Origin: a virus
Direction: 5' to 3' (one strand)
DNA: 60,339 nt
Virus record (IMG/VR): IMGVR_UViG_3300034352_000138
The notes under the pieces are model-generated. The model ran no database searches and was not told the DNA's origin. It saw only the letters and a program-made list of their open reading frames with translations. Both the position numbers and the translations under genes were made by a program. Positions 4,707 to 60,339 of this stretch are shown here, piece by piece. Positions within the stretch are counted from its first letter, which is position 1, and every line of letters begins with the position of its first letter.

Positions 4707-4751
4707 AAAAAGAAGCCCCTCTGATTCAAGCAATGCCTGAACCAGAGGGGC
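4707..4751 (-). terminator. Rho-independent terminator (leftward)
   Basis: On the minus strand, GCCCCTCTG-19 nt loop-CAGAGGGGC is followed by TTCTTTTT. It lies 25 nt after the stop of 4776..5510. Confidence 0.7.
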
Positions 4752-5525: not shown

Positions 5526-5768
5526 TTAGATTACAATTTTGGACATTACAGCGTCCAAGTGGCGGTGACTCTTTATGTTCCTCCTTGGTTTCGACCTTCT
5601 GGCCTTGGTTTCAGCTATCTCGCGGTGGAGCCGGACTCGTTCTTTATGAGCCCCCACCCCTACGCCTAACGTCCTGTCGAGTTTTTGCAGCTGCTCGAAC
5701 GGGCTCAGCCAGTTTCTAGCTGTTAGCCTTTCAGCGGCTTCGGCTTTTAATACTTCAGCTACCTTCAT
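5526..5768 (-). CDS. Hypothetical protein (80 aa)
   Basis: ORF with a strong SD (TAGGAGGAAAAATG). Confidence 0.65.
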   Translation of the reverse strand: MKVAEVLKAEAAERLTARNWLSPFEQLQKLDRTLGVGVGAHKERVRLHREIAETKARRSKPRRNIKSHRHLDAVMSKIVI

Positions 5769-6253: not shown

Positions 6254-6317
6254 GATGTTTGTTTCCTCAATAGTTAAATTTCATAGGAAGCCATCCTTGG
6301 CATTTACTCCTCCTTAC

Positions 6318-6449
6318 TTAATAAACAGGGCAAGGTGAGCTTGCGAACCTTGCACTTTCCATCCATCCTTGTAACTCCCATCCTACTATTCCAAAGGTGA
6401 CAATTGACATTAAGAATAGGATGAATATTGGGTGTTTAATTAACTGCAT
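6318..6449 (-). CDS. Small membrane protein (43 aa), not in the ORF track
   Basis: Hand translation MQLIKHPIFILFLMSIVTFGIVGWELQGWMESARFASSPCPVY. A GGAGG SD sits 6 nt upstream and there is one clear TM segment. Confidence 0.45.
   Translation of the reverse strand: MQLIKHPIFILFLMSIVTFGIVGWELQGWMESARFASSPCPVY
6321..6353 (-). promoter_or_regulatory. Conserved hairpin element, copy 1
   Basis: Plus strand: ATAAACAGGGCAAGGT-GAGCTTGCGA-ACCTTGC. The stem is 7 bp and the 10-nt loop is shared with copies 2 and 3 (one substitution in copy 3). Confidence 0.6.
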
Positions 6450-6576
6450 ACCAAGCCTCCTTTTGTTTAAGTACGGGATGCTTTCTTGCCCAGCCTTTAC
6501 ATACCTTTTTCTGGACTTTCCCTTCCAGTTTGCTGTAGAGGGCTAGGGACATGAGCCGTCGTTGGAATTTGTTCAT
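6436..6576 (-). CDS. Small basic protein (46 aa), not in the ORF track
   Basis: Hand translation MNKFQRRLMSLALYSKLEGKVQKKVCKGWARKHPVLKQKEAWYAVN, with a strong SD (GGAGGAGATAAAATG). Confidence 0.5.
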   Translation of the reverse strand: MNKFQRRLMSLALYSKLEGKVQKKVCKGWARKHPVLKQKEAWYAVN

Positions 6577-6631
6577 TTTATCTCCTCCGTTAATACTTCA
6601 TTGGAAATATGGCCATCCCTGGCCGTTAGGT

Positions 6632-6844
6632 TTATTTTCTGAGAAGCTTGTCGCCTCTCGCCCAAGCCGCATGTATTTCCTTAACTATGTATGCTTTGGT
6701 CTCGAACTTTGCTGGAGGATGTTTGAGCCACAAGTGGTGGAGATCTTCCACCAGTGCCCACGCGCGTGAGTCCGCCAAAAGCCGTGTGTTACCTGTGGCT
6801 TCCACTACATTGCAGATGGATTTGACTTCAGTTAGATAGAACAT
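6632..6844 (-). CDS. Hypothetical protein (70 aa)
   Basis: Start moved to the internal ATG at 6844, which is preceded by AAAGGAG at a 6-nt spacing. The longer track ORF has no SD. Confidence 0.55.
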   Translation of the reverse strand: MFYLTEVKSICNVVEATGNTRLLADSRAWALVEDLHHLWLKHPPAKFETKAYIVKEIHAAWARGDKLLRK

Positions 6845-6976
6845 GATTTGCTCCTTTCGTCGGCGAAGCCCTCGCTGTTCCCGAGTGACCACGTCTCAAG
6901 TACCAAGAATTGAATGGCTTTGTTTCCAAGCCACTGATATCGTTGGGCTTACTATTCTTACCTCCCAACTTACCAA

Positions 6977-7010
6977 TTAAACAGGGCCAAGTGAGCTTGC
7001 GAACTTGGCC
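6977..7010 (-). promoter_or_regulatory. Conserved hairpin element, copy 2
   Basis: Plus strand: TTAAACAGGGCCAAGT-GAGCTTGCGA-ACTTGGCC. The stem is 8 bp and differs from copy 1 by compensatory changes. The loop is identical. Confidence 0.6.
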
Positions 7011-7077
7011 ATTGAACTTGAAACATCCCATTGCATGTCCCTGGCCCTGGCTCTTGATCTTAGGAATGGGAAGGCAT

Positions 7078-7109
7078 AAAAAAGCCCCGAGTTCCGAAGA
7101 ACCCGAGGC
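7078..7109 (-). terminator. Rho-independent terminator (leftward)
   Basis: Minus strand: GCCTCGGGTTC-TTCG-GAACTCGGGGC (11 bp, two G-U pairs) followed by TTTTTT. Confidence 0.8.
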
Positions 7110-7116
7110 TGGGTTA

Positions 7117-7203
7117 CTAACTCCACGCCGCCTCGGTAAAGGCGACGAAGATGATGACCGCGATGATGGCGAGGCCGCAGATGCCCTGGATGTGCTCCCT
7201 CAT
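7117..7203 (-). CDS. Hydrophobic micro-protein (28 aa), translationally coupled
   Basis: ATGA overlap with the stop of 7203..7742. Translation MREHIQGICGLAIIAVIIFVAFTEAAWS. The terminator follows immediately. Confidence 0.4.
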   Translation of the reverse strand: MREHIQGICGLAIIAVIIFVAFTEAAWS

Positions 7204-7742
7204 CAGAAGGGGACTACCGAACCCAGGATCTCTGCCACCTTTCCGGTCGCACCTTTGAACTCGACGCTCTTTTTGGGAGCAGCGAACCCTTCTGCCAATT
7301 TCTGCAGAAGGTCGTAGCGGATGCGGACTACATCGCCAGTTACCGCGTAGGCCATGAAAACCTCCTGGGCCTGAGATACTTTGGACTCAGGCGTTAGCGG
7401 AGGAACGTGCCGCTTTACCTGTTTCTTTGGAGCGGGCGCCGGAGCCTGGGGCTCTTGCTCTTGGCGCCGGTGTTCAGCGATCCGCGCCTTGTTGATGGCC
7501 TGCTGATCCGGATACTTCTCGGGGTACTGTTTGCGGAGTACCGTCTCTATCTCCGCCTTTTGCTGCTTCGCAGAGTGCAGATGTAGAACGCTACCATCGT
7601 CCGTCTTTAGGTTTCGGACTACCTTGAGGCCACGCTTCCACACGATCATGCGAACCTTCCACCCTTCGCCGAAGCGGACGATGGTCGGGTACGGTGCCGG
7701 ATACGAACGGGTCTTTGCCACACCTATGTTCTGGTCGCTCAT
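7203..7742 (-). CDS. Hypothetical protein (179 aa), first gene of the leftward arm
   Basis: Start set at MSDQNIG (ATG 7742) with a GGAGAG SD. The 90-codon upstream extension in the track runs across the regulatory repeats. Confidence 0.65.
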   Translation of the reverse strand: MSDQNIGVAKTRSYPAPYPTIVRFGEGWKVRMIVWKRGLKVVRNLKTDDGSVLHLHSAKQQKAEIETVLRKQYPEKYPDQQAINKARIAEHRRQEQEPQAPAPAPKKQVKRHVPPLTPESKVSQAQEVFMAYAVTGDVVRIRYDLLQKLAEGFAAPKKSVEFKGATGKVAEILGSVVPF

Positions 7743-7790
7743 TACATACTCTCCAAGTAACGCAGAAGTCGAATGACTCCTGTCACTCAG

Positions 7791-7823
7791 ATAAACAGGG
7801 CAACCGGAGCTTGCGGAGGTTGC
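7791..7823 (-). promoter_or_regulatory. Conserved hairpin element, copy 3
   Basis: Plus strand: ATAAACAGGGCAACC-GGAGCTTGCGGA-GGTTGC. It has the same flank and loop core with a different stem. Confidence 0.55.
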
Positions 7824-7927
7824 AGGCCCTATGGGAAAAAGCCTCGGAGGGGTGGGGGCCCCCCGCACTAAGATCGGAGCACTAAGGGGGGACGGCGGCA
7901 ACCTCGCAGTTGGGCCATTTAGAATTG

Positions 7928-7956
7928 AACAGCCCCAAAAGCCCCATCTGCTTTCC
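7928..7956. repeat. Inverted partner of 2313..2339 (AAAGCAGATGGGGCT..TTGGGGCT..TT)
   Basis: The reverse complement of 7928-7954 matches 2313-2339 at 25 of 27 positions. Confidence 0.85.
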
Positions 7957-8065
7957 CGAGAAAATAAAATAGCGACGCTAGCCTCAGATTCTCGGGATTC
8001 AAACAGCCCCACTAGGCGATGCTGGTAAGCTTACGGCTGGTAAGCTTCGGTAATAACAATAGTTA

Positions 8066-8488
8066 ATGCAGATCATCGGAAGTACTAAGCTTAAAACTGC
8101 CACCAAAGGCTCAGCCGGGTATGACCTTAGAGCCGAGCTCTCAGAACCTGCCACCCTAGACCCTGGCGACGTAGCACTTGTCCCCACTGGGATCGCCATA
8201 CATTTAGATGACCCAAACATAGTCGCCAAGATCTACGCTCGCAGCGGTCTGGCTATCAAGCACGGGATCACGCTCGCGAACGGAGTGGGCGTAGTAGATA
8301 GTGACTATCAGGACGAGATTTACGTAGGGTTAGCGAATCATTCTTCGGTATCGTTCACTATCGAAGATGGTATGAGGATCGCGCAAATGTTGTTCGAGCC
8401 CGTATTACATCCGGCTTTCAGTTGGGTGGAGGACTTCTCGGAGGAGACAGAGCGTGAAGGTGGGTTTGGATCTACAGGGCTTCATTAA
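8066..8488 (+). CDS. dut: Trimeric dUTPase
   Basis: Motifs SAGYDL, RSGLA, GVVDSDYQDEI, RIAQM and GGFGSTG. Confidence 0.95.
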   Translation: MQIIGSTKLKTATKGSAGYDLRAELSEPATLDPGDVALVPTGIAIHLDDPNIVAKIYARSGLAIKHGITLANGVGVVDSDYQDEIYVGLANHSSVSFTIEDGMRIAQMLFEPVLHPAFSWVEDFSEETEREGGFGSTGLH

Positions 8489-33456: not shown

Positions 33457-36400
33457 ATGGCTGGATACAATATTCGTGATGTAATCGCCCCCCTCATGAT
33501 GGATGAGGAGGGTCGCGATATTCTCCTAAAGAATGGATATAGGATCCATGATGGCGATACAGTTATTTCACCTAGTGGGGAGAAAATCCGACTCTCAGGT
33601 ATTGACGCGGATGAAGTAGCTAACCCCTATAAAGGTACTTCCGATCAAGGTGCGGGGCGGTTAGCCCAAAATGCACTAGCTTATGGGTTAGACCAGGGAG
33701 GGGTATCGGTAAATCGTACGGGGCAAGACCACCACGGTAGAACAACTGCGGGCTTAGAGAGCAATATAGGGGATATTGAAGAGTACCTTGTCGCTAACAT
33801 GTACGCTTCTCGTTGGCCGAAATATGATAAGGATGGGTCTTTAGTAAATGCTGAAAACCTTCAGGGGCTTATGTATGCAAGCAAGGAGAATAAACACCCC
33901 GTAAAAGAGTTCATAAATCGAAATTTCCCCGTCGTTCCGGGGCGTTTACCTACACTCCCAAAAGGGAGGCTTACGCATACTCGTGGGGTGACTAGTAGAG
34001 CTTGGGCCCGTGGCATTGATAGCACACAACAGGGTGCTTATGGTTTAGCACATCTTGTAGGGCGAGCAGCAGGCAGTGAGGGCATCCAAGAGTGGGCCGA
34101 AGAAGGTATTGAGGAACAAGAACGGCAACTTCGTAAGAACCCAGCACGTTACCGATCTACGGCAGACGTCCATGGCGTTGGGGATGCTCTGGGTTTTGCA
34201 TACGAGAAAACGATAGAGAATCTTCCGCTATTAGCGTCAGCAGGTGTCGGAGGACTTGGTGCCAAGGTTACAGGACATATAGCGGGTAGGCAAATTGCTC
34301 AGAAGGCAGCGCATAGTGCCATGCAACGCGCAGGCGCTATGGGGGCTCGGGGCGAGGTTCTAAGTTCTATAGCCGGGAAGGCTGGTGCAGAGGCTGTACG
34401 GCAGCAAGCTAATAAACTAGGGGTAGCGGCAGGTACAGCAGTCTTTGGTGTAGCCAATACTGGGGAAACTGAAATCGGGCAGATGGCATTGGCGGACCCC
34501 GCCTCCCCTGCTGAAGTTTTAGGTATTGGGGCATTTAAGACCTACCTGGATAAAACTGGTATCGAAGTCATTATAGGTAGGTACTTAGGGGCCAAGGCCG
34601 CCAAGGGCGTAGTCGCTAAAGCTAAGAAGATTGCTACCGGAACAGTGGTCGCGGCGGGCGTAGAAGGTATGACTGAAGCTAGCCAGACCTTCTTGGATTT
34701 GGCGCTTCGGGATAGGCAAGATCCTAATTTCAATGCATTTGGCCCCGAAGCCCGGTCCATAATGCGCGAAGCTGGCATAACCGGGGCCGCTGTAGGCGGT
34801 ATGCTCGGCGGTGTTAGCGGCACTATAGGGGCAGTTTCTGAGAAGATTTCTGAGAAGGCCGCTCAAGCTATAGAAGAGAAAGAGCAGAAGATTGGGGAGG
34901 CTGAAGAAGCCGCTCGCCCTATAAGTACACTTAGGGAAGCGGCTGAAACACTTAGTACTAGCCAATGGCAGCGAATTCGAAATATCGCCAGTTCACATAG
35001 TGGCGGTAACCCGACTTCTAAGGACCAGGCTAGAACTTCTCTACGAGAAGCGGCCCCGCAAGTGAAAGAGGTTTTGGGAGAGGCTTATGCGGGTAAGGTA
35101 TTTAAGCCCCAAGTAGATGAGGACGGGGATGCGGTCCTATTTGAGGGGGGTTTTGATGAGGGCAACCCAGATCAGTACGACGCCAAGATGGAGTATATCC
35201 AGAAATATGCTCAGAAGGTTCTTGATGACCGGGCCAAGGCACAAGAAGCTATTAGGAAGCAGAAGGAGTCCGATGAAGCCAGCCCAAAAGATATAGTATT
35301 CGAGGAAGAGGAGACTGAAGTTCCGTCAGACCCAGAAGGTTGGGAGTATGTCGGCGAACGTAACAAGGACGGCAAATACCACGGACAAGGCACTTTTACC
35401 TGGCCCGAGGGGGATAGATACGTCGGTGGATTCAGGAATGGCAACTATCACGGCCAAGGCACCTATACCCATGCCGATGGAAGGGTGCAAAAGGGTATAT
35501 GGAAGAACGGTGCGTTTGTTGGGGAGTCTACTGAAGAGGTAGGAGGCGACAGAACTGAGACCAAGCCTGCGGTTAATAAGAAACCTACTAAAGGAGTCAA
35601 AGATTCTCCTGGTCCAGGGGATGCAGAAGTAAGCACTGATGCAACACCCGTTACCCCATTTCAGGAGTTAAAAAGTAGGCTAGACGGCGGACGTAAAGGG
35701 CCCGAGGATCACACGGCGACACAAAGTGCTATTACCACTAAGACCGAGGAGGGGGAGCCTGCTAAGGGTGATGAGACTAACGTCCAAACTCCACAAGCTT
35801 CTGATTCTAATACTGATGAAGTTTGGGGAATCGGCTCTGCAACTCCGATTATCCCGTCTCAGGTTAATAAAGGTGGGGCTAAGCTAGCGCAGGACGTCAA
35901 GGAGAAGGGTGCGAATAGGGGTTGGAGTGTCACTAGCCCTGAATTTATCCACTCCCCACTCAAGCAGATACTCAGGGTTGTAAAAAGTAGGCTAGACGGA
36001 GAAACGCCTGCACAGGAGCGGGAAGCTGACACTATTAGATTGAAGGATAATCTAAAGGACGTAGATGGGGAAATTGGCAAGCTTAAAAAAGCCGTTGAGA
36101 ATACCTATAAAGAGGGCTCAAAGGCTCAAAGTCGTAAGGATACACTTAGTAAGGTTATTAGGACGCAGTGGGATATGTCCTTAGAGGAGCGCCTCACCTC
36201 CTTAGAAGGGACGCGCGGGAAGTTGCTGCAGGAGCAAGCAGCCTTACAGGGCCCAGCCCCAACTAATGACGTTAGTCTTATTGCTTTAACCGAGGATGAG
36301 AAGTTCCTGGATGTAACTGATTGGGCGGGTGAAAAAGACGCGAACGCTCTCAAGAAGAGGCTGGGGAAAGACGCGCCCAAGATTACTCATGTTGTGGCGG

Positions 36401-39400
36401 TTAATACAGCAGATCTTGGTGACGGTTCGCAAACGGCTCTTAGTGACTCAGTATCCAAAGCAACAGAACGCCCCGTAACTACTCAGATCCGAACATTTGC
36501 TAAAGGCGGTAAGTGGTTCATCCACACGAATACAGCTAAGGACAGGGATGTAGGACTTTCAGCTGGGGAGATTCGAACAAGAATCCGCGCATCCTACGAT
36601 TCCGCTAAAAACTCTAGGAACGCGACTATTGAGCTCCAGCCTATGGAGGATGGGAAGCCTGCGGTTGACGACGATGGGAATAAGTTACCACCTCGTAAAT
36701 TCGACGCGCATTTACTTACTTACCTAGGTATGCATGCGGCTACGCAGTCGTCATTTAAAAGTACAGACCGTAAACGGGGCGATACACTCAGTTACTTCTT
36801 GGACGGGCTTGCGACTTTAGAATTGAACCTCGCCCCGGTTAGTAGGAAGGGTAAGGCCTACACTCATTCTGTAGTAGATAAGGATGGGAATGTCTCAAAA
36901 ATCGGAGATGAAAAATTCCGTATAGATGGCGATCAAGTCATACAGGTTGGTAAAGAGCCGATAACTGTTAAGTCAGATACCCGAGGCCCTACCAGGCATG
37001 TCGATGGCGCTGTCGATGTGGGGCAGGAAAGTAATGAGTTCTTAATAACTCCCGAGAAAGTTGAAGCTCGGCAGGCAGAACTAGAACGCGAAAGCACTGC
37101 CTCCGATGCTGATATCGATGCGCGGTTGAAATCCGGGGAGATCAATGAGGAGCAAGCAAAACAGGAGATCCAGGAGCAGAGTGATAAGAACTTCGGCGCT
37201 GAGCAACTAGCGGAAGAATACGAACTTCGTACGCTCCCTATACTTCGGACTCGATTGGATGTACTTCGAGCATTTCAGGCAGGCCTAGGTGAGGTCGCCA
37301 AGAAGTCGAAGAAAATCTCAGATTTGGTAGATTCGATGGGGGCCGCGGTTAAGAGGATTAAAGGCGGCGCTAATATCAAACGGGGGGCTTATGCAGCAAT
37401 GGCTGAGCCGTCAGCCCGTGAACTCGAACTTGAGGAAAGATTATTTGGCCCTGAGTTCGATGGGGTTCGGGCAGAAGCTAAGAAAATTAGAGGGGAACTC
37501 ACAGAACTCAGAGGGAAGATTCGTCAGCGTAAGGAGGAGATTAAAGCGCATAGGGAGGAGATTAAAGCACATAGGGAGGAGATTGCAGAGCTTGATAGGG
37601 ATCCAAAGCCCTACAATGCCTATGAGATTGGCAAGCTTGAGAAAGAGATTGGCACCCTTGAAGGAAAGATCGGTAAGCTTGAGAAAGAGATTACTAAATT
37701 TGAAGGTACGATCAAGAAACGAGAGTCTCCGCGTGGTAAGGCGGCTACACGTAATGAACTTAATGAACTTGAGGAGGATATCCTCGCGCTAAGCAAAAAG
37801 CGTCAAAAGCTTGAAGATGCAAGGGCTAAAGAATTTCTCCGGGCAAAAGCTATATCCGCTAGTCAGGAAGCGGACTACCTAGCTAAGGAGAATGCTGAGA
37901 AGGACATCAACCCCGTTCCTTTCCCACTTAATAGAGGCCTTGAGGGTACTGAGGGTGGGGCTAAAGGGCGTGAAACTAAACGGCTTCTGAATGAGTCGCT
38001 TGATGACTTGGTTACTAGGTTCCAAGAGCTAAAGAAGTCTTTACCTAAAACCGCTGAGAAAAGCGGGAAAGTTAAGGCTGTTCGCAGAGCGGCTTTCGAC
38101 GAACTTAATGAGGTTCAGCGGCAGATTCGTAAGATAGAAGCAGCCATCACCAGCTACGGGCGAGACACTGTAAATTATGGGTCGGATGTCCAGATGACCA
38201 TAACTGAGGACGGTGATATCGTACCGCTCAGTGGGACGAACGTCGCTAAAGATTATGAGCCGGATATTACTACCAAGAATCCTGATGCGGGGCGCCAGGG
38301 TGATAGGGATCTAACCGATACGACTACCCCCCAGAGGAGTTCTAAACCTGGGAAAACCTCTGATGTACGAGCTAAACTCAATATAAAACTTGATAAGAAC
38401 ATGGCGCCTGTCGTCAAGATGCTTCGGTGGGCCCGAGAACATCTTGGATTGGAAGGTACTTCACTATCAGTCATCGATGAGAACGGTCTGGAGAAGATGA
38501 TCGCCAGCCTCGAAAAGGGGTTGAAGAACTGGGATGCCAGAATTGCAAAGGAAGTTAAGAAGCGGGGGCTCAATAAGAAGGACAAAAAGAAGGACAAAAC
38601 GCAATTCCTATTCCAGCAAAAAGAGAATCACGATATTTACGTATTGAAGCTGAAGCGGCTAAAAGGCGCACGAAAGGTTTTGGATCGCGGTGGCATCATT
38701 TATAACGACGACTTTAATGATAAGAAAGGGGTTGATCGCTCCTGGGCGCGTATACCGATCATGATCCTTAGTACTAAGACTAAGGCTGTTAAGGATGCAG
38801 AGGGGAACATAGTACAGCCGAGCCGGGTACTTTCTGGGGAGGAACGTCTTGATACGATGTTGCATGAATTTGGTCACTTCGTACAACGTGTGTCTATGGA
38901 CCAGATCATCGCCCAGGCTCAGGATCAAGGTCCGAACTCTGATGCGGCTAAGGTCGTTGAGTCTATATTTGGTAGGGTGGATTGGGCTCAAAAATATGAT
39001 CGTGAGTCTCCAGAGCGGAGGACTGGGGAGACTAAGAAAGCCTTTACAGCTCGGGTTAAGGAACATAACGAGCGAGTGAAACTTAGCGAAACGCGCGTTG
39101 CGGACCAGGCTGAAGCACGGGAATGGTTTGCGAACATGCTGGTTTATTGGGCTAGTACTAAAGAGGCTCCTAAAACTGCGGTAGAGCATTTCTTTAAGGA
39201 AGCGGCGAAGAAGCTGAGAGCTTGGTTCGATAGAGTAACCAAGGAGATGAAAGCCTATAAGGGCTCAAACGAATACCTTAAAGTTCGGGAAGATGCTCGT
39301 GGTAAAGCCCATAAGAGGTTGCTACATTGGCAGGGTGTAAAGAAGAAAGCGGAGAAGACACTTACAACAAAGGGCAATATGAAGATCCTCTCTGGGGAGG

Positions 39401-42258
39401 AGAAGATTGCGCTGGATAAAGAAGTCGCCAAAGCATTAGGTCACATCCAACGAATTGAAGAGGATTTACATGCACTTGAAACTGAGTCCCAAGAAGCTCA
39501 GTCCCTAGAAGGGGGCCGAGAAAAGAACTTCATGCAGTTCATGGACGCTATGGCGGGTCGTGGGCAACCTAATTCTAGGGCTATTAGACGGGGTAAGAAG
39601 GTATTCACGGAGCGACAAAGAATTCAGACCCGGCACAATAGACTGTTAGAGGGCTTAGGGCAGACCCTCCAGGAGCAGATCAGTTGGCTCGACTCTAAAG
39701 TAGCTGTCTTGGAGGGCCCTGCTAAGGTTAAGTTCGCTAAGAGAGTGGCAAAGGTTAAGCAGAGATTGCATAAAGGGCATGCCGCAACGAGAAAACAATA
39801 TGCAAAGGCGAGGGATACCGCTCTGGCTTCTTTTGATAAGGAGTGGGGGGAGATCATGACCCAGGCCAAGATGGCTGGGAAACCTGTACCTAGATCTTTG
39901 GATAAGACTAGAGAATTGGTAGAAAGCTTAGCGTTCTCTATGCATAGCCGTCCTAGATCTGATGGGGTTCTGGGTGATAGGTATTTCGGTGAAGAGATTA
40001 TGGGTCGTGCTAAGGCTAAGGTTGAAGCTGGCGTAACTCGTACGAGGAGTAGTCGCGGAGGAGCGTGGACAGAATCCCAGGTTTCGAATCTCTGGGGCAA
40101 AGTGGCTCAGCGCGGAAGTCTTATGGTACAGGCTGTTGATGGCAGACTTAAAGGAATGAAGTCTTCTGCTGATACACCCTCAGTAACTGCCACATTCATG
40201 GCGAATCTGTTTCGTTGGGATATGGGTACAGTAGGGATAGGTTCAAATACTATACCCGATACTGTTACTCGGATTAAACGACGTATCCAACCCATGATGC
40301 AGAAGTCCCTGGACACTATGCCAGTCGTACCCCATTTGATTGAACGTCTTAAAAATCCAGAGGCTTCCAAGGAAGATCTAGCTTTACTTAAAGAGATTAC
40401 TGAGGGATTAATTAAGCACCAGTCTGTGAAGCTCAAGGACTTAGATGTCTCTGATAGGGCCAGAACAGAGATTGGTAAGGTTCGTCAGTATTTTAAGGAG
40501 GTATATAGCACGAGTGTGAGTGGTACTGGTGGGGCTACGGTGGGAGAGATGTTGAATATTTGGGAAGTAGAGAATTACTTTCCGATGATTTTAGATATTG
40601 AAAAGTTTAGTAACCCGGAGAGAAAGGAGTACATCCTTCGGGCTATAGGAAAAGACAAAGCCTTTAATTTTATAGACGCAGACGGTCAGTGGTTAGAACA
40701 CGGTGAGGCGAATGCCGAGAAGGTCTACAATAATATTATTACGGCTGAAGGGCAGACTGATCCTTCTATTATAATGAAGCCGGACGTTCTTGGTCCTCAG
40801 TTTATGGGTAAATTACATCGTGAATTTTCCCCGAAGTTACAATCTGATTTGGCAGAGTTTTACCATGATAATGTGTATCAGATTATGGTGGGCTATACAG
40901 ACGCTCTTGCTAAGCGGTTAGCTTGGCAGATACATGTAGGGGGATATGAGCAGGATAAGAGTGGTCGTTTTGTTCTTAGAGAGGCACGGAGTGAGCATGA
41001 GACCGTTGCAGATCGATTGATGTACTCCCCGGTGGCTAGGCTCAATTGGATGTTGAATAATGCGGTGGAGCTTGGGGATCTTAAAGCTGAAGATGCTATA
41101 TGGATTCGTGAGGTGGCTATACCTGCTTATCAGGGAAATCTCGGGGCAGATATGTCGCCGGGTATTCGGAAGGCAGTGGCTTGGACTAAAACCTACCTTA
41201 GTGTTTCGATTCTAGCGGGGGCAACTTTTACATCGATACCTGATCTTGCCGGGATTTATATTAGGCTTGGGGCTTATGCAGATGCTAATAGGTCATATGA
41301 GGGAATTAAGGAGTTATTTAAACTAGCTACGGATAGTGGTTATAGAAAGGAGGCAGCTCGATATGCAAATGTATTGCTTACTGTTCATGACGATTTCGTA
41401 GATCATGCTTTAGCTAATACTACTGCTATTGGTTATACCCCAGCACCGATCCTTAAAGTTAATGATGCTTTCTTTAAAGTTATCATGCTGAAGCAATGGA
41501 CCGATTTCACAAGAATTCTTGCGACTAATATTGCGAAGGATGATATTAAGTGGTTGTATGGGGAGAATACTGCAGAGGCTAATGAGAAACTGGGAAGGTT
41601 GGGTTTAGAACGGAGAGATGTAGAGGCTTGGATTGATGCGGGGGCGGATAGTAATCATTTGACCCAGCAAGAATATGACTACGCAAATCCTCGAATAGCT
41701 ATAGCTTTAAACAGATGGGTGGATCAAGCGGTTATTCGACCATCAGCGGCGTTAAGGCCAGGGCGTTGGGGGTCGGATCATAGGATGGCATTCTCTTGGT
41801 ATCTAAATGACTTCGTTTGGGGGTTTTACGAGACTGTTATGAAACAAGCTTACCAGGGGTTTAAGGATCAGAAGGGATTTGCTAAGGTGTTGCCCCCGTT
41901 GATGTTGGCGGCTACGGTTTTACCTCTAGCGGCTTTAGGGTATGAGCTTCGGAAGCTAATCTTTGGTAAGTTACCAGCGGCGGCTTTAGATACTAGGGAT
42001 GTAACTCGGGAACTTCACGGGCTGGATTATTTAGCAGAGGTGTTTCGTAGATCGGGTTTGATGGGTCCGCTTCAGATGTATGATGATTATGCGACTGATC
42101 GACAACGGGGTAAGTCAGCGATATTGAATTTAGGTGGAGTGTTGCCAGAGAAGTTCTTGGATTTGATAGATAATCCAGAAAGGACTATGTGGAAGACTAA
42201 CCCCATTACAGGGACTTCCCCTACTCTTAGAGCCTACTTCAAGGATCAGCTAGAATGA
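33457..42258 (+). CDS. Giant multidomain virion-type protein (2933 aa): SNase-like nuclease, Gly/Ala-rich hydrophobic region, MORN repeats, coiled coils, HExxH metallopeptidase motif, C-terminal hydrophobic segments
   Basis: SNase pattern IHDGDTV...IRLSGIDADE...DHHGRTTA (nt 33538-33816). MORN repeats YVGERNKDGKYHGQGTFTW and YVGGFRNGNYHGQGTYTH (nt about 35341-35525). Heptad repeats EEIKAHR x2 plus EEIAELD, and GKLEKEI-type. HEFGH at nt 38863-38877. TM-like LSVSILAGATFTSIPDLAGIYI and VLPPLMLAATVLPLAALGY. Confidence 0.8.
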   Translation: MAGYNIRDVIAPLMMDEEGRDILLKNGYRIHDGDTVISPSGEKIRLSGIDADEVANPYKGTSDQGAGRLAQNALAYGLDQGGVSVNRTGQDHHGRTTAGLESNIGDIEEYLVANMYASRWPKYDKDGSLVNAENLQGLMYASKENKHPVKEFINRNFPVVPGRLPTLPKGRLTHTRGVTSRAWARGIDSTQQGAYGLAHLVGRAAGSEGIQEWAEEGIEEQERQLRKNPARYRSTADVHGVGDALGFAYEKTIENLPLLASAGVGGLGAKVTGHIAGRQIAQKAAHSAMQRAGAMGARGEVLSSIAGKAGAEAVRQQANKLGVAAGTAVFGVANTGETEIGQMALADPASPAEVLGIGAFKTYLDKTGIEVIIGRYLGAKAAKGVVAKAKKIATGTVVAAGVEGMTEASQTFLDLALRDRQDPNFNAFGPEARSIMREAGITGAAVGGMLGGVSGTIGAVSEKISEKAAQAIEEKEQKIGEAEEAARPISTLREAAETLSTSQWQRIRNIASSHSGGNPTSKDQARTSLREAAPQVKEVLGEAYAGKVFKPQVDEDGDAVLFEGGFDEGNPDQYDAKMEYIQKYAQKVLDDRAKAQEAIRKQKESDEASPKDIVFEEEETEVPSDPEGWEYVGERNKDGKYHGQGTFTWPEGDRYVGGFRNGNYHGQGTYTHADGRVQKGIWKNGAFVGESTEEVGGDRTETKPAVNKKPTKGVKDSPGPGDAEVSTDATPVTPFQELKSRLDGGRKGPEDHTATQSAITTKTEEGEPAKGDETNVQTPQASDSNTDEVWGIGSATPIIPSQVNKGGAKLAQDVKEKGANRGWSVTSPEFIHSPLKQILRVVKSRLDGETPAQEREADTIRLKDNLKDVDGEIGKLKKAVENTYKEGSKAQSRKDTLSKVIRTQWDMSLEERLTSLEGTRGKLLQEQAALQGPAPTNDVSLIALTEDEKFLDVTDWAGEKDANALKKRLGKDAPKITHVVAVNTADLGDGSQTALSDSVSKATERPVTTQIRTFAKGGKWFIHTNTAKDRDVGLSAGEIRTRIRASYDSAKNSRNATIELQPMEDGKPAVDDDGNKLPPRKFDAHLLTYLGMHAATQSSFKSTDRKRGDTLSYFLDGLATLELNLAPVSRKGKAYTHSVVDKDGNVSKIGDEKFRIDGDQVIQVGKEPITVKSDTRGPTRHVDGAVDVGQESNEFLITPEKVEARQAELERESTASDADIDARLKSGEINEEQAKQEIQEQSDKNFGAEQLAEEYELRTLPILRTRLDVLRAFQAGLGEVAKKSKKISDLVDSMGAAVKRIKGGANIKRGAYAAMAEPSARELELEERLFGPEFDGVRAEAKKIRGELTELRGKIRQRKEEIKAHREEIKAHREEIAELDRDPKPYNAYEIGKLEKEIGTLEGKIGKLEKEITKFEGTIKKRESPRGKAATRNELNELEEDILALSKKRQKLEDARAKEFLRAKAISASQEADYLAKENAEKDINPVPFPLNRGLEGTEGGAKGRETKRLLNESLDDLVTRFQELKKSLPKTAEKSGKVKAVRRAAFDELNEVQRQIRKIEAAITSYGRDTVNYGSDVQMTITEDGDIVPLSGTNVAKDYEPDITTKNPDAGRQGDRDLTDTTTPQRSSKPGKTSDVRAKLNIKLDKNMAPVVKMLRWAREHLGLEGTSLSVIDENGLEKMIASLEKGLKNWDARIAKEVKKRGLNKKDKKKDKTQFLFQQKENHDIYVLKLKRLKGARKVLDRGGIIYNDDFNDKKGVDRSWARIPIMILSTKTKAVKDAEGNIVQPSRVLSGEERLDTMLHEFGHFVQRVSMDQIIAQAQDQGPNSDAAKVVESIFGRVDWAQKYDRESPERRTGETKKAFTARVKEHNERVKLSETRVADQAEAREWFANMLVYWASTKEAPKTAVEHFFKEAAKKLRAWFDRVTKEMKAYKGSNEYLKVREDARGKAHKRLLHWQGVKKKAEKTLTTKGNMKILSGEEKIALDKEVAKALGHIQRIEEDLHALETESQEAQSLEGGREKNFMQFMDAMAGRGQPNSRAIRRGKKVFTERQRIQTRHNRLLEGLGQTLQEQISWLDSKVAVLEGPAKVKFAKRVAKVKQRLHKGHAATRKQYAKARDTALASFDKEWGEIMTQAKMAGKPVPRSLDKTRELVESLAFSMHSRPRSDGVLGDRYFGEEIMGRAKAKVEAGVTRTRSSRGGAWTESQVSNLWGKVAQRGSLMVQAVDGRLKGMKSSADTPSVTATFMANLFRWDMGTVGIGSNTIPDTVTRIKRRIQPMMQKSLDTMPVVPHLIERLKNPEASKEDLALLKEITEGLIKHQSVKLKDLDVSDRARTEIGKVRQYFKEVYSTSVSGTGGATVGEMLNIWEVENYFPMILDIEKFSNPERKEYILRAIGKDKAFNFIDADGQWLEHGEANAEKVYNNIITAEGQTDPSIIMKPDVLGPQFMGKLHREFSPKLQSDLAEFYHDNVYQIMVGYTDALAKRLAWQIHVGGYEQDKSGRFVLREARSEHETVADRLMYSPVARLNWMLNNAVELGDLKAEDAIWIREVAIPAYQGNLGADMSPGIRKAVAWTKTYLSVSILAGATFTSIPDLAGIYIRLGAYADANRSYEGIKELFKLATDSGYRKEAARYANVLLTVHDDFVDHALANTTAIGYTPAPILKVNDAFFKVIMLKQWTDFTRILATNIAKDDIKWLYGENTAEANEKLGRLGLERRDVEAWIDAGADSNHLTQQEYDYANPRIAIALNRWVDQAVIRPSAALRPGRWGSDHRMAFSWYLNDFVWGFYETVMKQAYQGFKDQKGFAKVLPPLMLAATVLPLAALGYELRKLIFGKLPAAALDTRDVTRELHGLDYLAEVFRRSGLMGPLQMYDDYATDRQRGKSAILNLGGVLPEKFLDLIDNPERTMWKTNPITGTSPTLRAYFKDQLE

Positions 42259-43487: not shown

Positions 43488-44498
43488 TTACTCTATATTG
43501 GATGCGTAGTTAGCTAGGTGTTGGGGTGCTAAATGGGCATAGCGTTCTACCATGTCTAAACTACTCCATGCGCCTAGTTGTTTAAGGCCTTCGATGGGCG
43601 TTCCGTTCTGGATATGCCAACTGGCCCAAGTATGGCGTAAGTCGTGCCATGTAAATTCTGTGATCTCTGCCCGTTTTAGTGCGTTTTTAAATGCTCTTGT
43701 GTAAGGGTTTTTAATCGGTTCGCCGTTGTAATGGAAAATGTGTGTAGGGTGTTTGCCTTTCTGCGCGTATAAGACTTCCCTCCCCGTCTTATTGAGTGGT
43801 ACGCGAATAGTTTTCCCTTTTCCCTTTTTACTTTTGGTTTGATCTGCGTGAATCCAGGCTAGGTTGTTTTCTAGGTCTATTTGGGACCATGTAAGGTTAG
43901 TGACGTTAGATTTTCGTAATCCGGTCGCCAAAGAAAATCTAACCATAACTTCTAAATGTGGGGGTAATTGTAGAAGTAGTTTTGCTGCGTCAGCTTTAGA
44001 TAAGAAACGTACTCGCTTCTTATCTTCGGGCAGGAGGTTAAATTGGGGTAGTTTGCTGATATAGCCCCAAGGTTTGAGGCATTTATGTAGAACTGTACTG
44101 ATTGCCGCAATGTATATATTAACAGTGCGGTACTTTACGCCTTCTGCGAGTTTGATATCGATTAGGTCATCGATTAACTCTTCGGTGATCGCAGAGAGTG
44201 GTAGGTTACCTATGTGGGGGTCAAGCCATTTGAATTGGGTGTTGCGATCTGAGAGTGTCTTTGGTTTGATGTGTTTTTGGGCCCATTTAACCCAGCGCAC
44301 TACGGCTTCGTACCAGAATATCTCTCGTTGGATACCTAAGTGGGTTTTATCCCAGGCTTCAGCTTGTCTTTTATCAGCGTATTCTTGAGCTTTTAGCTTG
44401 TCGGTAGTCCGAGTAGATCTTCGTACTCTTTTCTGGTCTGGTAATTTGAAGTCGTAGAACCAATACGGGGAATTTGGGTCTTTGTAGAGTTTGGCCAT
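43488..44498 (-). CDS. int: Tyrosine integrase
   Basis: C-terminal catalytic region TGLRKSN...FTWHDLRHTWASWHIQNG...LGAWSSLDMVERYAHL (R, HxxR, Y). The N-terminal SAM-like domain and the adjacent xis and attP support the call. Confidence 0.95.
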   Translation of the reverse strand: MAKLYKDPNSPYWFYDFKLPDQKRVRRSTRTTDKLKAQEYADKRQAEAWDKTHLGIQREIFWYEAVVRWVKWAQKHIKPKTLSDRNTQFKWLDPHIGNLPLSAITEELIDDLIDIKLAEGVKYRTVNIYIAAISTVLHKCLKPWGYISKLPQFNLLPEDKKRVRFLSKADAAKLLLQLPPHLEVMVRFSLATGLRKSNVTNLTWSQIDLENNLAWIHADQTKSKKGKGKTIRVPLNKTGREVLYAQKGKHPTHIFHYNGEPIKNPYTRAFKNALKRAEITEFTWHDLRHTWASWHIQNGTPIEGLKQLGAWSSLDMVERYAHLAPQHLANYASNIE

Positions 44499-53827: not shown

Positions 53828-54142
53828 TTATAGAGTTCCTTTAGGGTGTTCTAAGGCTAGTAAGAAGATTAGGCAGCACATTGCGTGAGCTAAGTGTGGT
53901 TCTTGAGTTTCTTTATCAAGAATTTCACCCGCCTGATAAGCGGCTAGATGTCGTTGTGCGGCGGCGAAATACCTACGTTCAGCATCAGGTACGTCTCGCC
54001 AGTTATCTCTGCCATACTTTTCCGCCCCGAACATCAGTACGTGGAGGACTGGTTCTAGGGCCTGCATCGGCAATAAGCTCCAGTCGGTTTTGAATTCGTC
54101 GAATTTTTGTCCTAATTTGATCTGCTTTACGTTCTTGCTCAT
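53828..54142 (-). CDS. DUF5664-type dATP/dGTP pyrophosphohydrolase-like protein
   Basis: LLPMQALEPVLHVLMFGAEKYGRDNW...AAQRHLAAYQAGEILDKETQEPHLAHAMCCLIFLL matches the family signature (GAxKY..NW, RH, HLAHA) as I recall it. Confidence 0.65.
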   Translation of the reverse strand: MSKNVKQIKLGQKFDEFKTDWSLLPMQALEPVLHVLMFGAEKYGRDNWRDVPDAERRYFAAAQRHLAAYQAGEILDKETQEPHLAHAMCCLIFLLALEHPKGTL

Positions 54143-60187: not shown

Positions 60188-60339
60188 TCAAAGCAGGTCC
60201 TCCGGAATATTGCCATCATCATCATCATCAGTAATAAGGCTTTCTAATGGTGGAATCGTAGGGAAGTCGAGCTGATATTTACTTATAAGCTTTAGAAGAC
60301 GATGTTCTGTGATACCCAGTAGCTCGGAAGCTAACTGGG
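60188..60339 (-). CDS. 3-prime part of the junction-spanning Fis-type HTH gene (60217-60339 duplicates 1-123)
   Basis: Same reading frame as 220..1, with a TGA stop at 60190..60188. Confidence 0.6.
   Translation of the reverse strand, partial: QLASELLGITEHRLLKLISKYQLDFPTIPPLESLITDDDDDGNIPEDLL
60217..60339. repeat. Terminal direct repeat, right copy
   Basis: Identical to 1..123. Confidence 0.97.

Follow-up and report, generated by a model that had tools for sequence, protein, structure and literature searches.

A hairpin-plus-tail element repeated ahead of three early cassettes of an uncultivated podovirus-like phage, most likely a control of early transcription

In the lambda nut site, a short hairpin with a conserved loop stands beside a conserved single-stranded motif in the early leader, upstream of the first gene and the first strong terminator, and a basic, lineage-specific protein is the first gene product. 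The boxB hairpin has a 5-bp stem and a GNRA-like pentaloop, boxA (CGCUCUUA / GCUCUUUA) lies 5' of it, and N is encoded between the first hairpin and the first strong terminator. The order is reversed in the E. coli rrn leader, where a hairpin of 24 nt (GCCGCU-12 nt-AGCGGC, 6-bp stem) is followed after 2 nt by UGCUCUUUAACAA; we know of no need of a specific protein for the rrn boxB loop. NusB-NusE recognises 8 nt of boxA, with additional contacts to the dsRNA beside it (PMC3177189). N4 early promoters are defined by a 5-7 bp stem, a 3-nt loop and a GC-rich heptamer centred at -11; their conserved bases are required, and their variable stem bases are free if paired (PMC4496689). PeSLs of T4-type phages, small lineage-specific stem-loop repeats that flank hypervariable early ORFans, with some copies in a terminator- or promoter-type position, are defined by consensus sigma-70 promoters (PMC2839356). 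In the podovirus T7, conserved RNase III hairpins of ~20 bp or more with internal loops stand ahead of successive early cistrons.

Here these systems are compared with a 33-nt hairpin-plus-tail element that occurs three times on one strand (minus, the gene strand) of an uncultivated, podovirus-like phage genome of ~60 kb; the window, 60,339 bp, is the whole stretch of DNA that was analysed. The phage belongs to a group distantly related to Pseudomonas phage KPP25, Xanthomonas phage DES1 and Rhizobium RHph_TM3-type podoviruses, in which early-gene control is uncharacterised. The element is real and under selection, and it is most likely a control of early transcription, the exact role being beyond the reach of sequence alone.

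Structure and covariation of the three copies

The three positions named in a first-pass annotation of the window (6321-6353, 6977-7010 and 7791-7823) were borne out when the sequence was re-read:

6321..6353, minus strand: copy 1; hairpin 6353-6330, stem GCAAGGT/ACCTTGC, loop TCGCAAGCTC; tail CCTGTTTAT at 6329-6321; 63.4 bits
6977..7010, minus strand: copy 2; hairpin 7010-6985, stem GGCCAAGT/ACTTGGCC, loop TCGCAAGCTC; tail CTGTTTAA to 6977; 62.2 bits
7791..7823, minus strand: copy 3; hairpin 7823-7800, stem GCAACC/GGTTGC, loop CCGCAAGCTC; tail CCTGTTTAT at 7799-7791; 56.0 bits

On the minus strand the element reads as a 7-bp stem, the loop YCGCAAGCUC, the returning stem and the tail CCUGUUUAW. 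As DNA, the stem pairs are G-C, C-G, N-N, A-T, N-N, N-N and T-A, followed by the 10-nt loop and CCTGTTTAW; copy 2 adds an eighth, outer G-C pair, and the stem of copy 3 consists of 6 bp and a U.C mismatch at the loop-closing position. Both the flank TAAACAGGGC and the loop GAGCTTGCGR occur exactly only at the three copies in 60,339 bp. A covariance model built from the copies, a check that the first-pass annotation had proposed, scored their own sites at 56.0-63.4 bits and the next match in the genome at 13.9 bits (E = 0.067).

Covarying stems around a fixed loop had been noticed at first reading, and closer counting agrees: the half-sites differ among the copies with complementarity kept, while the loop (9/10 nt) and the 3' tail (9-10 nt) are invariant. 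Among these three paralogous copies within one genome, pair counting found formed pairs in 95% of cells, and three of the seven stem pairs change on both sides with pairing kept (A-U/C-G; G-C/A-U/C-G; G-C/C-G). The observed pairing and covariation values were matched by 5-12 of 500 shuffles, and pairing falls to 19-57% in slid registers. Selection on structure is thereby supported, not selection on a peptide or on a palindromic duplex site. An invariant loop and tail beside three of seven pairs that change on both sides are the pattern expected of a structure that a sequence-specific factor reads.

The short hairpins have a modest RNA folding energy of about -11 to -12 kcal/mol, with z near zero in a 53-nt context, and DNA folding z-scores of -1.7 to -3.2 for 28-mers. 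All 20 of the 20 formed pairs are Watson-Crick, without a single G.U pair, which is not required of an RNA-only element; action as RNA and action as DNA are therefore equally compatible with the pairing. Of the earlier proposal of a protein-recognised RNA hairpin, selection on structure is thus supported and the part that concerns RNA is weakened. The copies had been described as read in different ORF frames, which is true of copy 2, but copies 1 and 3 share a frame (peptide A-x-x-A-S-S-x-C-P-V-Y). Despite this correction, the conclusion that the conservation is not at protein level still holds.

Genomic setting and relatives

One copy stands ahead of each of the first three early leftward cassettes, always on the gene strand and in an untranslated stretch. 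The neighbouring features are as follows:

4715..4751, minus strand: terminator T2; strong intrinsic, 17 pairs; closes cassette C
7077..7110 (called 7110-7083), minus strand: terminator T1; strong intrinsic, 12-bp stem, T6; boundary of cassettes A and B
7203..7742, minus strand: gene 1; 179 aa, pI 10.0, basic; homologues not found
7840..7865, minus strand: terminator-like hairpin of the leader; G/C-rich, with T5; copy 3 follows 12-20 nt downstream
7866..7925, minus strand: block conserved in the clade, upstream of copy 3; CTAAATGGCCCAACTGCGAGGTTGCCGCCGTCCCCCC..., C-rich tracts and a -10-like hexamer that reads nAAAAT in relatives

The tail ends 48 nt ahead of the next annotated start for copy 3, upstream of gene 1, the first leftward gene; 133 nt for copy 2, upstream of a 70-aa gene and 66 nt downstream of T1; and 68 nt for copy 1, upstream of a 158-aa gene and overlapping the 3' end of a hydrophobic 43-aa ORF. 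These values replace the 50-140 nt given at first. The terminator reported upstream of copy 2 is real and is T1 (7110-7083, 12-bp stem, T6), which comes after gene 1 and a hydrophobic 28-aa ORF.

The conserved block and its -10-like hexamer are found ~90 nt upstream of copy 3, which is therefore plausibly inside a leader; the block itself, we infer, may hold the leftward promoter and the leader start. A hairpin in this block, CAACU-GCGA-GGUUG, has its stem in common with copy 3. It was considered as a boxB-like candidate and dropped, the pairing being lost in relatives L073, L075 and L076. Profile and homologue searches with gene 1 gave no homologue or family match, and its AlphaFold2 model (pLDDT 48) is too low for a fold search. 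By its position, equivalent to that of N in lambda, the gene 1 product is a candidate trans-factor. A 46-aa protein (6436..6576) had been suggested as the binder, but it lies downstream of T1, a poor position for an N-like factor, and the basic 179-aa gene 1 product is better placed.

Could the copies simply be intrinsic terminators of a weak kind, or attenuators? All three have a hairpin and, behind it, a tail that contains U, and the terminator scan flagged an alternative 5-bp hairpin inside copy 1, the only call it made at the elements; the full hairpins were not called. This reading, which the first-pass annotation had listed as a refuting alternative, is nevertheless most improbable: unlike an intrinsic terminator, the element has a 10-nt loop and a tail, CCCUGUUUAU, with three consecutive U and no run of at least 5 U after the stem; the conserved loop would be superfluous, two copies lie just past far better terminators, and the genome's real terminators look quite different.

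The distances to the start codons also bear on a role as translational operators, in which an early RNA-binding protein would act on leader hairpins and time or limit the translation of each cassette, as T4 RegA and gp32 do on their targets. The invariant loop and tail would suit such a protein, and in all three copies a purine-rich GGAG follows 8-12 nt past the tail. However, real start codons are 48-133 nt away from the hairpins, which leave the Shine-Dalgarno sequences of these codons uncovered, and a start codon follows at copy 1 only, for a mini-ORF of 9 codons. A further point in favour comes from relative L075, in which SSB is the first gene behind the equivalent hairpin; in T4 the SSB class autoregulates on its own leader. 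On balance this role is unlikely.

Among the collections searched, the element is private to this phage. The first-pass annotation had named beforehand the absence of homologous hairpins as one observation that would speak against it, and none was found in any relative or public collection searched. An exact-pattern scan of IMG/VR returned 63 matches, all in conserved coding sequence or due to chance and none a hairpin; metagenome and genome collections returned 157, the best with 6/7 pairs, in a distribution that chance predicts. Three Pseudanabaena matches were rejected as an unrelated conserved gene. The covariance model found no copy in 80 TerL-related loci (E > 0.6) or in dUTPase-related contigs, blastn of the element against GenBank phages gave chance 18-20-mers only, and the whole window had zero matches in Rfam at the gathering threshold. 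Likewise, no relatives of the early proteins were found in IMG/VR, and exact-protein look-ups returned nothing beyond this phage itself and a single strain 96.5% identical to it. The two recoverable copies of that strain are unchanged, and it adds no covariation, because the neighbouring T1, spacer and UTR are unchanged as well.

No counterparts of the early proteins are present in those relatives that have DNA polymerase, dUTPase and TerL in common with this phage, and the element region is not conserved among relatives with 82-87% TerL identity. Lineage-specific ORFans flanked by repeats in so variable a region, with PeSLs as a precedent, might suggest that the elements are mainly recombination joints through which early ORFan cassettes are gained, lost and shuffled, with any role in expression secondary. 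We regard this as quite unlikely: joints would be expected to have identical stems, yet the stems are the diverged part and the identity of 19-20 nt falls in two blocks, and a cassette together with the element was found in no other genome.

In these relatives the architecture is kept and the sequence is not. A hairpin with a different conserved 11-mer, CTCGGCTATAT, stands in the leader ahead of gene 1 and recurs past the strong terminator behind gene 1; the layout of gene 1 and then a strong terminator is conserved, and the first gene and the motif differ from those of this phage. The 11-mer contains a fair -10 (TATATT). In L075 the SSB gene mentioned above is the first after this hairpin. 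The equivalent hairpins are long (14-25 bp, -28 to -44 kcal/mol).

Hairpins of that length are of RNase III-substrate size, and the present elements lie between cistrons of a podovirus-like early operon, as do the T7 sites. The elements could be sites of RNA processing or stability. A host or phage endoribonuclease of RNase E type would cut in the AU-rich tail and separate the cassettes into individual mRNAs, and the hairpin would shield either the upstream product at its 3' end or the downstream product at its 5' end; single-stranded G-UUUA-W behind a hairpin is a setting typical of RNase E. This is nonetheless rather unlikely. Stems of 6-8 bp differ from those of T7 and, at 7 bp, are too short for RNase III; neither cutting nor protection requires an invariant 10-nt loop; and copies 2 and 3 follow terminators, so that a 3' end there needs no processing.

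Antitermination and promoter readings

The best single reading, which we hold tentatively, is that each element is a cis-acting, nut-like module of processive antitermination on the nascent early mRNA, built in reversed, rrn-like order. Host RNA polymerase would start leftward in the conserved block near 7910 and transcribe copy 3 within a leader of roughly 165 nt. As RNA, the invariant 10-nt loop would then be offered to a phage-specific early protein, for which the gene 1 product is the best candidate by position, and the single-stranded tail CCUGUUUAW would be a boxA-like site for host NusB/NusE. The complex would travel with the polymerase, allowing read-through of T1 (7110-7083) and later of T2 (4751-4715) and shielding the long untranslated leaders from Rho, and would be reloaded by copies 2 and 1 at the heads of the next two cassettes.

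The arrangement argues for this scheme in that copy 3 precedes gene 1 and T1, copies 2 and 1 precede T2, and all copies are untranslated, on the gene strand and 48-133 nt before the next gene. As in the lambda leader, a short hairpin with a conserved loop adjoins a conserved single-stranded motif upstream of a basic (pI 10.0), lineage-specific first product, as lineage-specific as the element itself. As in the rrn leader, a hairpin of 24 nt is followed closely, here after 1 nt, by a boxA-like CUGUUUA; the tail CCUGUUUA agrees with the E. coli boxA core GCUCUUUA at 6/8 positions, and the boxA of the host may differ from that of E. coli. Furthermore, because neither a phage RNA polymerase nor a sigma-70-like promoter adjoining the copies was found, independent initiation at each copy is disfavoured.

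Several points stand against antitermination. The stem of 7 bp (6-8) and the loop of 10 nt, YCGCAAGCUC, depart from the boxB definition, and the boxA-like CCUGUUUA (6/8) lies 3' of the hairpin, the reverse of lambda. That likeness arose after several known motifs had been tried; a canonical boxA was found neither near the copies nor in the rightward leader, and an N homologue was not found in this phage. Unlike lambda, one operon has three sites and the rightward operon none. The upstream promoter amounts to a weak -10-like hexamer in the conserved block, and the main target of rrn-type complexes is Rho and not a strong intrinsic terminator like T1. The counterpart of the motif in the relatives, CUCGGCUAUAU, does not resemble boxA and is followed by a gene for SSB instead of one for an N-like protein. 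The absence of G.U pairs leaves nothing to mark the RNA strand. Read-through would be needed for about six small genes only, because genes further downstream, that for DNA polymerase among them, are served by ACAGCCCC-type promoters of their own. The boxB/nut-like option raised at first reading is kept in a modified form, with a boxA-like tail and rrn-like order in its favour; the hairpin departs from the boxB definition, and homologues were not found in the collections searched.

A further objection is that copy 2 comes right after a strong terminator and copy 3 after a terminator-like hairpin, which is odd for a nut site and is the classic layout of a terminator followed by a promoter. The main rival builds on this: the element would be a composite DNA signal at unit heads, one promoter per early unit with the hairpin as insulator or terminator, similar to PeSLs. 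Three units would result: copy 3, gene 1 and T1; copy 2 and three small genes; and copy 1, three genes and T2. Two copies lie just downstream of terminator-type hairpins, and the element is the only conserved sequence at each cassette head, the minus strand of 6260-8100 having no sigma-70-like promoter of at least 8/12. The rest of the genome is built of promoter-gene-terminator units with promoters of the class ACAGCCCC-N15-TAnnnT, the relatives have hairpin plus CTCGGCTATAT, with its TATATT, at the same two positions, and the stem pairs are all Watson-Crick. Like the surroundings of PeSLs (PMC2839356), the cassettes consist of hypervariable ORFans.

This promoter reading is nonetheless doubtful, since no acceptable -10 exists: TTTATT, TTTAAT and TTTATC are without A at position 2, TATTAA, TAATTG and TATCTG are without T at position 6, and the best -35 candidate, TCGCAA, matches at 3/6. 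Readings as sigma-70, sigma-54, sigma-32, sigma-28 and ECF promoters, by eye and by script, were abandoned for want of a consistent match. PeSLs have consensus sigma-70 promoters and efficiently terminating G/C-run stems, whereas the phage elements have neither, and in the latter the loop is the conserved part. An invariant loop is superfluous for an insulating hairpin, a basal early promoter is not expected to be lineage-specific, and an alternative sigma factor or polymerase was not found. Complementarity of the loop to other phage transcripts was limited to one-mismatch sites, at chance frequency.

The element could also be an N4-type promoter, in which an extruded hairpin of the template (plus) strand is used by a virion-delivered polymerase that starts in the conserved tail. 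As in N4, three copies in one orientation lie at the start of the early region, each with a GC-rich centre, conserved central and flanking bases, flanking inverted repeats and variable stem bases that just pair, and a conserved stretch is directly 3' of the hairpin. Tandem G.A pairs and a C-TT-G mini-loop could lengthen the plus-strand hairpin. An ejected virion protein of 2933 aa, about 1000 aa of which are without assignment, might offer a place for the enzyme. Against this, the stem length fits the N4 definition but the loop has 10 nt instead of 3, the phage genome is not related to Schitoviridae, and no RNA polymerase, of the virion or other, was detected: PHROGs, Pfam, a PDB sequence search and a motif scan found no such domain in ORFs of at least 150 aa. 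For the giant protein, Pfam, PHROGs and PDB sequence searches give MORN repeats only; its sole Rx3Kx7YG match sits in a coiled coil, with motifs A/C not at the right spacing, and its C-terminal domain, for which 1463 homologues exist, is a common domain of giant virion proteins, e.g. that of KPP25. Its N terminus has a staphylococcal-nuclease-like motif (homologue P0121 matches PF00565), and homologues carry an IrrE/M78 peptidase domain. The AlphaFold2 models of gene 1 (pLDDT 48) and of the C-terminal domain (pLDDT 46.5) are both of low confidence, and a remotely homologous polymerase may have escaped these searches. On balance an N4-type promoter is very unlikely, and so, as a long shot, are structure-dependent DNA hairpin promoters for a profile-invisible polymerase, maybe one in the ~1000 unassigned residues.

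Whichever reading applies, the locus is a compact and testable system, comprising three sites of 33 nt, in each of which loop, tail and stem pairs can be mutated independently, a pair of strong terminators and a few small, basic early proteins; besides gene 1, basic early proteins are encoded at 6436-6576 and 5526-5768. Nut-like antitermination, if true, would provide a phage antitermination site in which, as in rrn, the hairpin precedes boxA, and in which loop and protein form a new pair. Promoters at unit heads would represent a class of non-sigma-70 early promoter in a phage without a visible polymerase, and hairpin promoters proper would extend N4-style early transcription by a phage's own polymerase to a second, unrelated and widespread group, the family of the giant protein having > 1400 members. 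In conclusion, the recurrence at conserved positions of a hairpin and a 10-11-nt motif, divergent in sequence among relatives, suggests that such a module is a general design principle for the clade.

Hairpin elements at the heads of the early cassettes

Three hairpin-plus-tail elements lie where the first-pass annotation had placed them, in the early leftward operon, each heading one gene cassette. Copy 2 follows a strong intrinsic terminator (T1), as had also been claimed.

7791-7823, minus strand: copy 3, heading cassette A, with gene 1 (7203-7742, 179 aa, pI 10.0), a 28-aa hydrophobic ORF and terminator T1 (7110-7083)
6977-7010, minus strand: copy 2, heading cassette B, with ORFs of 70, 46 and 43 aa
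6321-6353, minus strand: copy 1, heading cassette C, with genes of 158, 80 and 244 aa and the strong terminator T2 (4751-4715)

On the gene strand the stem pairs of each element are G-C, C-G, N-N, A-U, N-N, N-N, U-A, the loop is YCGCAAGCUC, and CCUGUUUAW follows. The conservation of flank and loop was upheld, each exact string being confined to the three element sites in the genome. The stems, described as differing yet staying paired, carry two-sided changes in three of the seven pairs with 95% of cells paired; every pair formed in the three copies is Watson-Crick, and pairing collapses to 19-57% in slid registers. A covariance model scored the three copies at 56-63 bits and the rest of the genome at 13.9 or less. 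Of the claim that ORFs cross the elements in different frames, the part on copy 2 held, while copies 1 and 3 share a frame; the conservation is indeed not at the protein level, since frames differ and the ORF that crosses copy 3 would be an improbable extension upstream. The element is real, under selection and private to its lineage, a cis-acting signal in early gene control; with loop and tail invariant, stem positions free as long as they pair, and a single orientation, its anatomy demands a factor able to read a single strand in folded form. This anatomy does not fit a plain terminator, and a weak terminator is the least credible reading.

The early proteins have no homologues in the relatives, which keep the DNA polymerase, a 108-aa protein, the dUTPase and the packaging genes in synteny. 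Cassette A ends in a hydrophobic ORF of 28 aa (7117-7203, minus), shortly before copy 2, and cassette B in one of 43 aa (6318-6449, minus), shortly before copy 1. On the minus strand, 6260-8100 holds no sigma-70-like promoter scoring 8/12 or more. PeSLs, the T4-type cassettes of promoter and stem-loop, are defined by consensus sigma-70 promoters (PMC2839356); the cassette context here fits a PeSL-like reading, but such promoters are absent.

Genome layout, promoter-like boxes and the polymerase question

The window holds one complete phage genome, about 60.2 kb long and circular or circularly permuted, because a second, independent assembly of this phage (60,118 bp) spans the junction of the window ends, which overlap by about 123 nt (1-135 and 60217-60339). 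No DNA-level similarity was found among GenBank phages, and the closest proteins, 30-50% identical, come from KPP25-, DES1- and RHph_TM3-type phages.

8066 to 42258, plus strand: dUTPase, TerL, SU10-type portal and adaptor, major capsid, tail, internal virion proteins and a 2933-aa virion protein (33457-42258)
About 7742 leftwards over the junction to 43488, minus strand: small ORFans first, then DNA polymerase A, ATPase, ligase, primase, exonuclease, helicase, thymidylate synthase and integrase

The tyrosine integrase (43488-44498, minus) sits at the distal end of the leftward set, in a genome that otherwise has a full lytic-type replication module; neither a tRNA gene nor an attP was identified for it, and the phage may be temperate or the integrase may work as a resolvase. 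A 104-aa protein (53828-54142, minus) scores E = 2e-31 against PF18909, the N-terminal domain of dATP/dGTP diphosphohydrolase, a family known from purine-modifying phages; no PurZ-like gene was seen in the genome. Between the DNA polymerase and the next gene, the non-coding, repeat-rich gap 1455-2340 holds DnaA-box-like repeats (TTATGGACA / TGTCCATAA), a stretch of 28 nt repeated exactly at 2175 and 2251, two copies of AACAGCCCCATCTGCT, three of CATCGAGTGTATA around 1500-1540 and an imperfect inverted repeat of 107 nt; it is probably the replication origin.

A second motif class, elsewhere in the genome, is clearly promoter-like. The box ACAGCCCC occurs at 11 exact sites against 1.7 expected, almost all non-coding and in the orientation of the next gene, and at five of them exactly 15 nt separate the box from a TAnnnT hexamer; the variant box AAAGCCCC marks a sixth site, upstream of the primase.

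1571, 4161, 42846, 47775 and 52458 (the variant), minus strand; 8003, plus strand: ACAGCCCC-N15-TAnnnT class sites
1899, 2160, 2241, 2329 and 56451, minus strand; 7929, plus strand: further ACAGCCCC boxes

Behind these sites lie the DNA polymerase, the primase, the dUTPase/structural operon and others. The motif is kept in relatives, and four related loci (L067, L073, L075 and L076) have three tandem boxes before the rightward operon. By analogy, ACAGCCCC looks like an upstream box in place of the -35, as with MotA boxes or the sites of phage sigma factors, and ACAGCCCC-N15-TAnnnT would be a phage-specific class; the hairpin elements are without the box. Both the -10 hexamer (TAAGCT) of the promoter with the rightward ACAGCCCC box and the dUTPase leader at its 5' end are overlapped by a perfect 8-bp hairpin, AAGCTTAC-GGCTG-GTAAGCTT (8027-8047); no obvious Shine-Dalgarno sequence precedes the start codon of the dUTPase.

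The description of N4 early promoters fits the element's anatomy almost word for word (PMC4496689), but the loop here is 10 nt and the enzyme is missing, which leaves an N4-type promoter highly improbable. No phage RNA polymerase was found in the genome; a very remote one, while conceivable, has no support. The 2933-aa virion protein has a staphylococcal-nuclease-like N terminus, Gly/Ala-rich segments, MORN repeats (~615-690), long coiled coils, an HEFGH metallopeptidase motif at 1802 and a C-terminal domain of about 600 aa that recurs in over 1400 giant proteins of 1600-3700 aa, the KPP25 virion structural protein among them. PF00565 and IrrE/M78 domains are present in homologues of the 2933-aa protein, which is probably a multi-enzyme protein that is ejected. 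Its sole Rx3Kx7YG match was rejected as a polymerase motif, lying in coiled coil without partners at the right spacing, and both AlphaFold2 models, one of the gene 1 product and one of the virion protein's C-terminal domain, were of low confidence.

The divergent control region and related loci

The divergent control region is kept clade-wide, with rightward ACAGCCCC boxes, then a leftward block nAAAATGGCTCAACCGCGAGGTTGCCGCCGTCCCCC, then C-rich and G/C-rich tracts. A leftward transcription start near 7910 is plausible because the nAAAATGGCTCAACCGCGAGGTTGCCGCCGTCCCCC block holds a -10-like hexamer. In this leader (7866-7925 and 7840-7865, minus) the nucleotide sequence of the block is shared throughout the clade, though the genes behind it differ; the C-rich and G/C-rich tracts after it (GGGGGGCCCCCACCCC) are joined by a T5 run, and the whole could be a leftward promoter plus a rut-like or attenuator leader. 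GGTTGCC, the 3' arm of copy 3, recurs in the leader block. In a 91-97%-identical strain (L307, L310, L311) the control region carries a 128-nt insertion at window 7940-7954, with a 15-nt duplication (GCCCCATCTGCTTT) on both flanks, two copies of CCCTGTTA oriented opposite to the elements' CCCTGTTTA, and ATGACAAC/GTTGTCAT repeats, which looks like a small mobile or regulatory module.

In the related loci L073-L076 the conserved block is followed by a stable hairpin (-28 kcal/mol in L075), CTCGGCTATAT directly behind it, gene 1 (an SSB in L075) and a strong terminator, after which come another hairpin of very high stability (-41 to -44 kcal/mol), CTCGGCTATAT once more and a small membrane-protein gene. 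Since hairpin and CTCGGCTATAT precede gene 1 and follow the terminator, a module of hairpin and conserved 10-11-nt 3' motif occupies the two places that copies 3 and 2 have in the window, its sequence being unrelated. Between copies the relatives share the motif only, whereas the window's copies share the loop too. The relatives' post-terminator hairpin (L076 7237-7332, L075 7277-7342, minus) is a 23-25-bp inverted repeat, its arms containing a CTCGGCTATAT-type motif and its complement; the L076 loop holds five tandem CTAAG-type repeats, and the hairpin could act as a switch between alternative pairings or as an array of protein-binding sites. In L075 the second hairpin module is followed by a membrane-type ORF of 45 aa (~7100-7236, minus).

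The search for homologous hairpins in relatives, named in the first-pass annotation, returned none. The covariance model had no match in 80 loci around related terminases, 13 of them 82-87% TerL-identical, nor in dUTPase-related contigs; blastn against GenBank phages and Rfam came back empty; and pattern scans of IMG/VR, a metagenome collection and one genome per prokaryotic species gave only chance or coding matches without the stem. Covariation is therefore confined to the three paralogous copies. Near-identical contigs from other samples carry the same elements; in a strain with 96.5% identity across 1376 nt, neither copy 3 nor copy 2 has changed, which adds little because the adjacent terminator, spacer and UTR are equally unchanged.

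Candidate functions of the element

A nut-like site, read on the RNA for processive antitermination, is ranked first as a tentative choice. Copy 3 lies inside a probable leader, ahead of gene 1 and T1; gene 1, basic and lineage-specific, would suit such a system, as would the strong terminators within the early operon and the boxA-like tail. The E. coli rrn leader sequence examined here has a 24-nt hairpin, 2 nt and then UGCUCUUUAACAA; the phage element has a 24-nt hairpin, 1 nt and CUGUUUA, which agrees with the boxA core at 6/8 positions. The boxA stretch read by NusB-NusE is 8 nt long, and the pair also touches neighbouring dsRNA (PMC3177189). Against nut-like antitermination, copies 2 and 3 stand directly after terminator-type hairpins, three sites occur within a single operon, the relatives' motif is unlike boxA, and the downstream replication genes have their own promoters. 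A composite promoter/insulator is a rather doubtful second, an RNA processing or stability site is less likely again, a translational operator is improbable, and a recombination joint, very improbable, stands just ahead of the N4-type promoter; some of the probability is given to none of these readings.

The hairpin proposed earlier as protein-recognised and possibly nut-like thus stands as an observation, and its interpretation is reasonable and putative, not yet separable from a DNA-level signal at the head of each unit.
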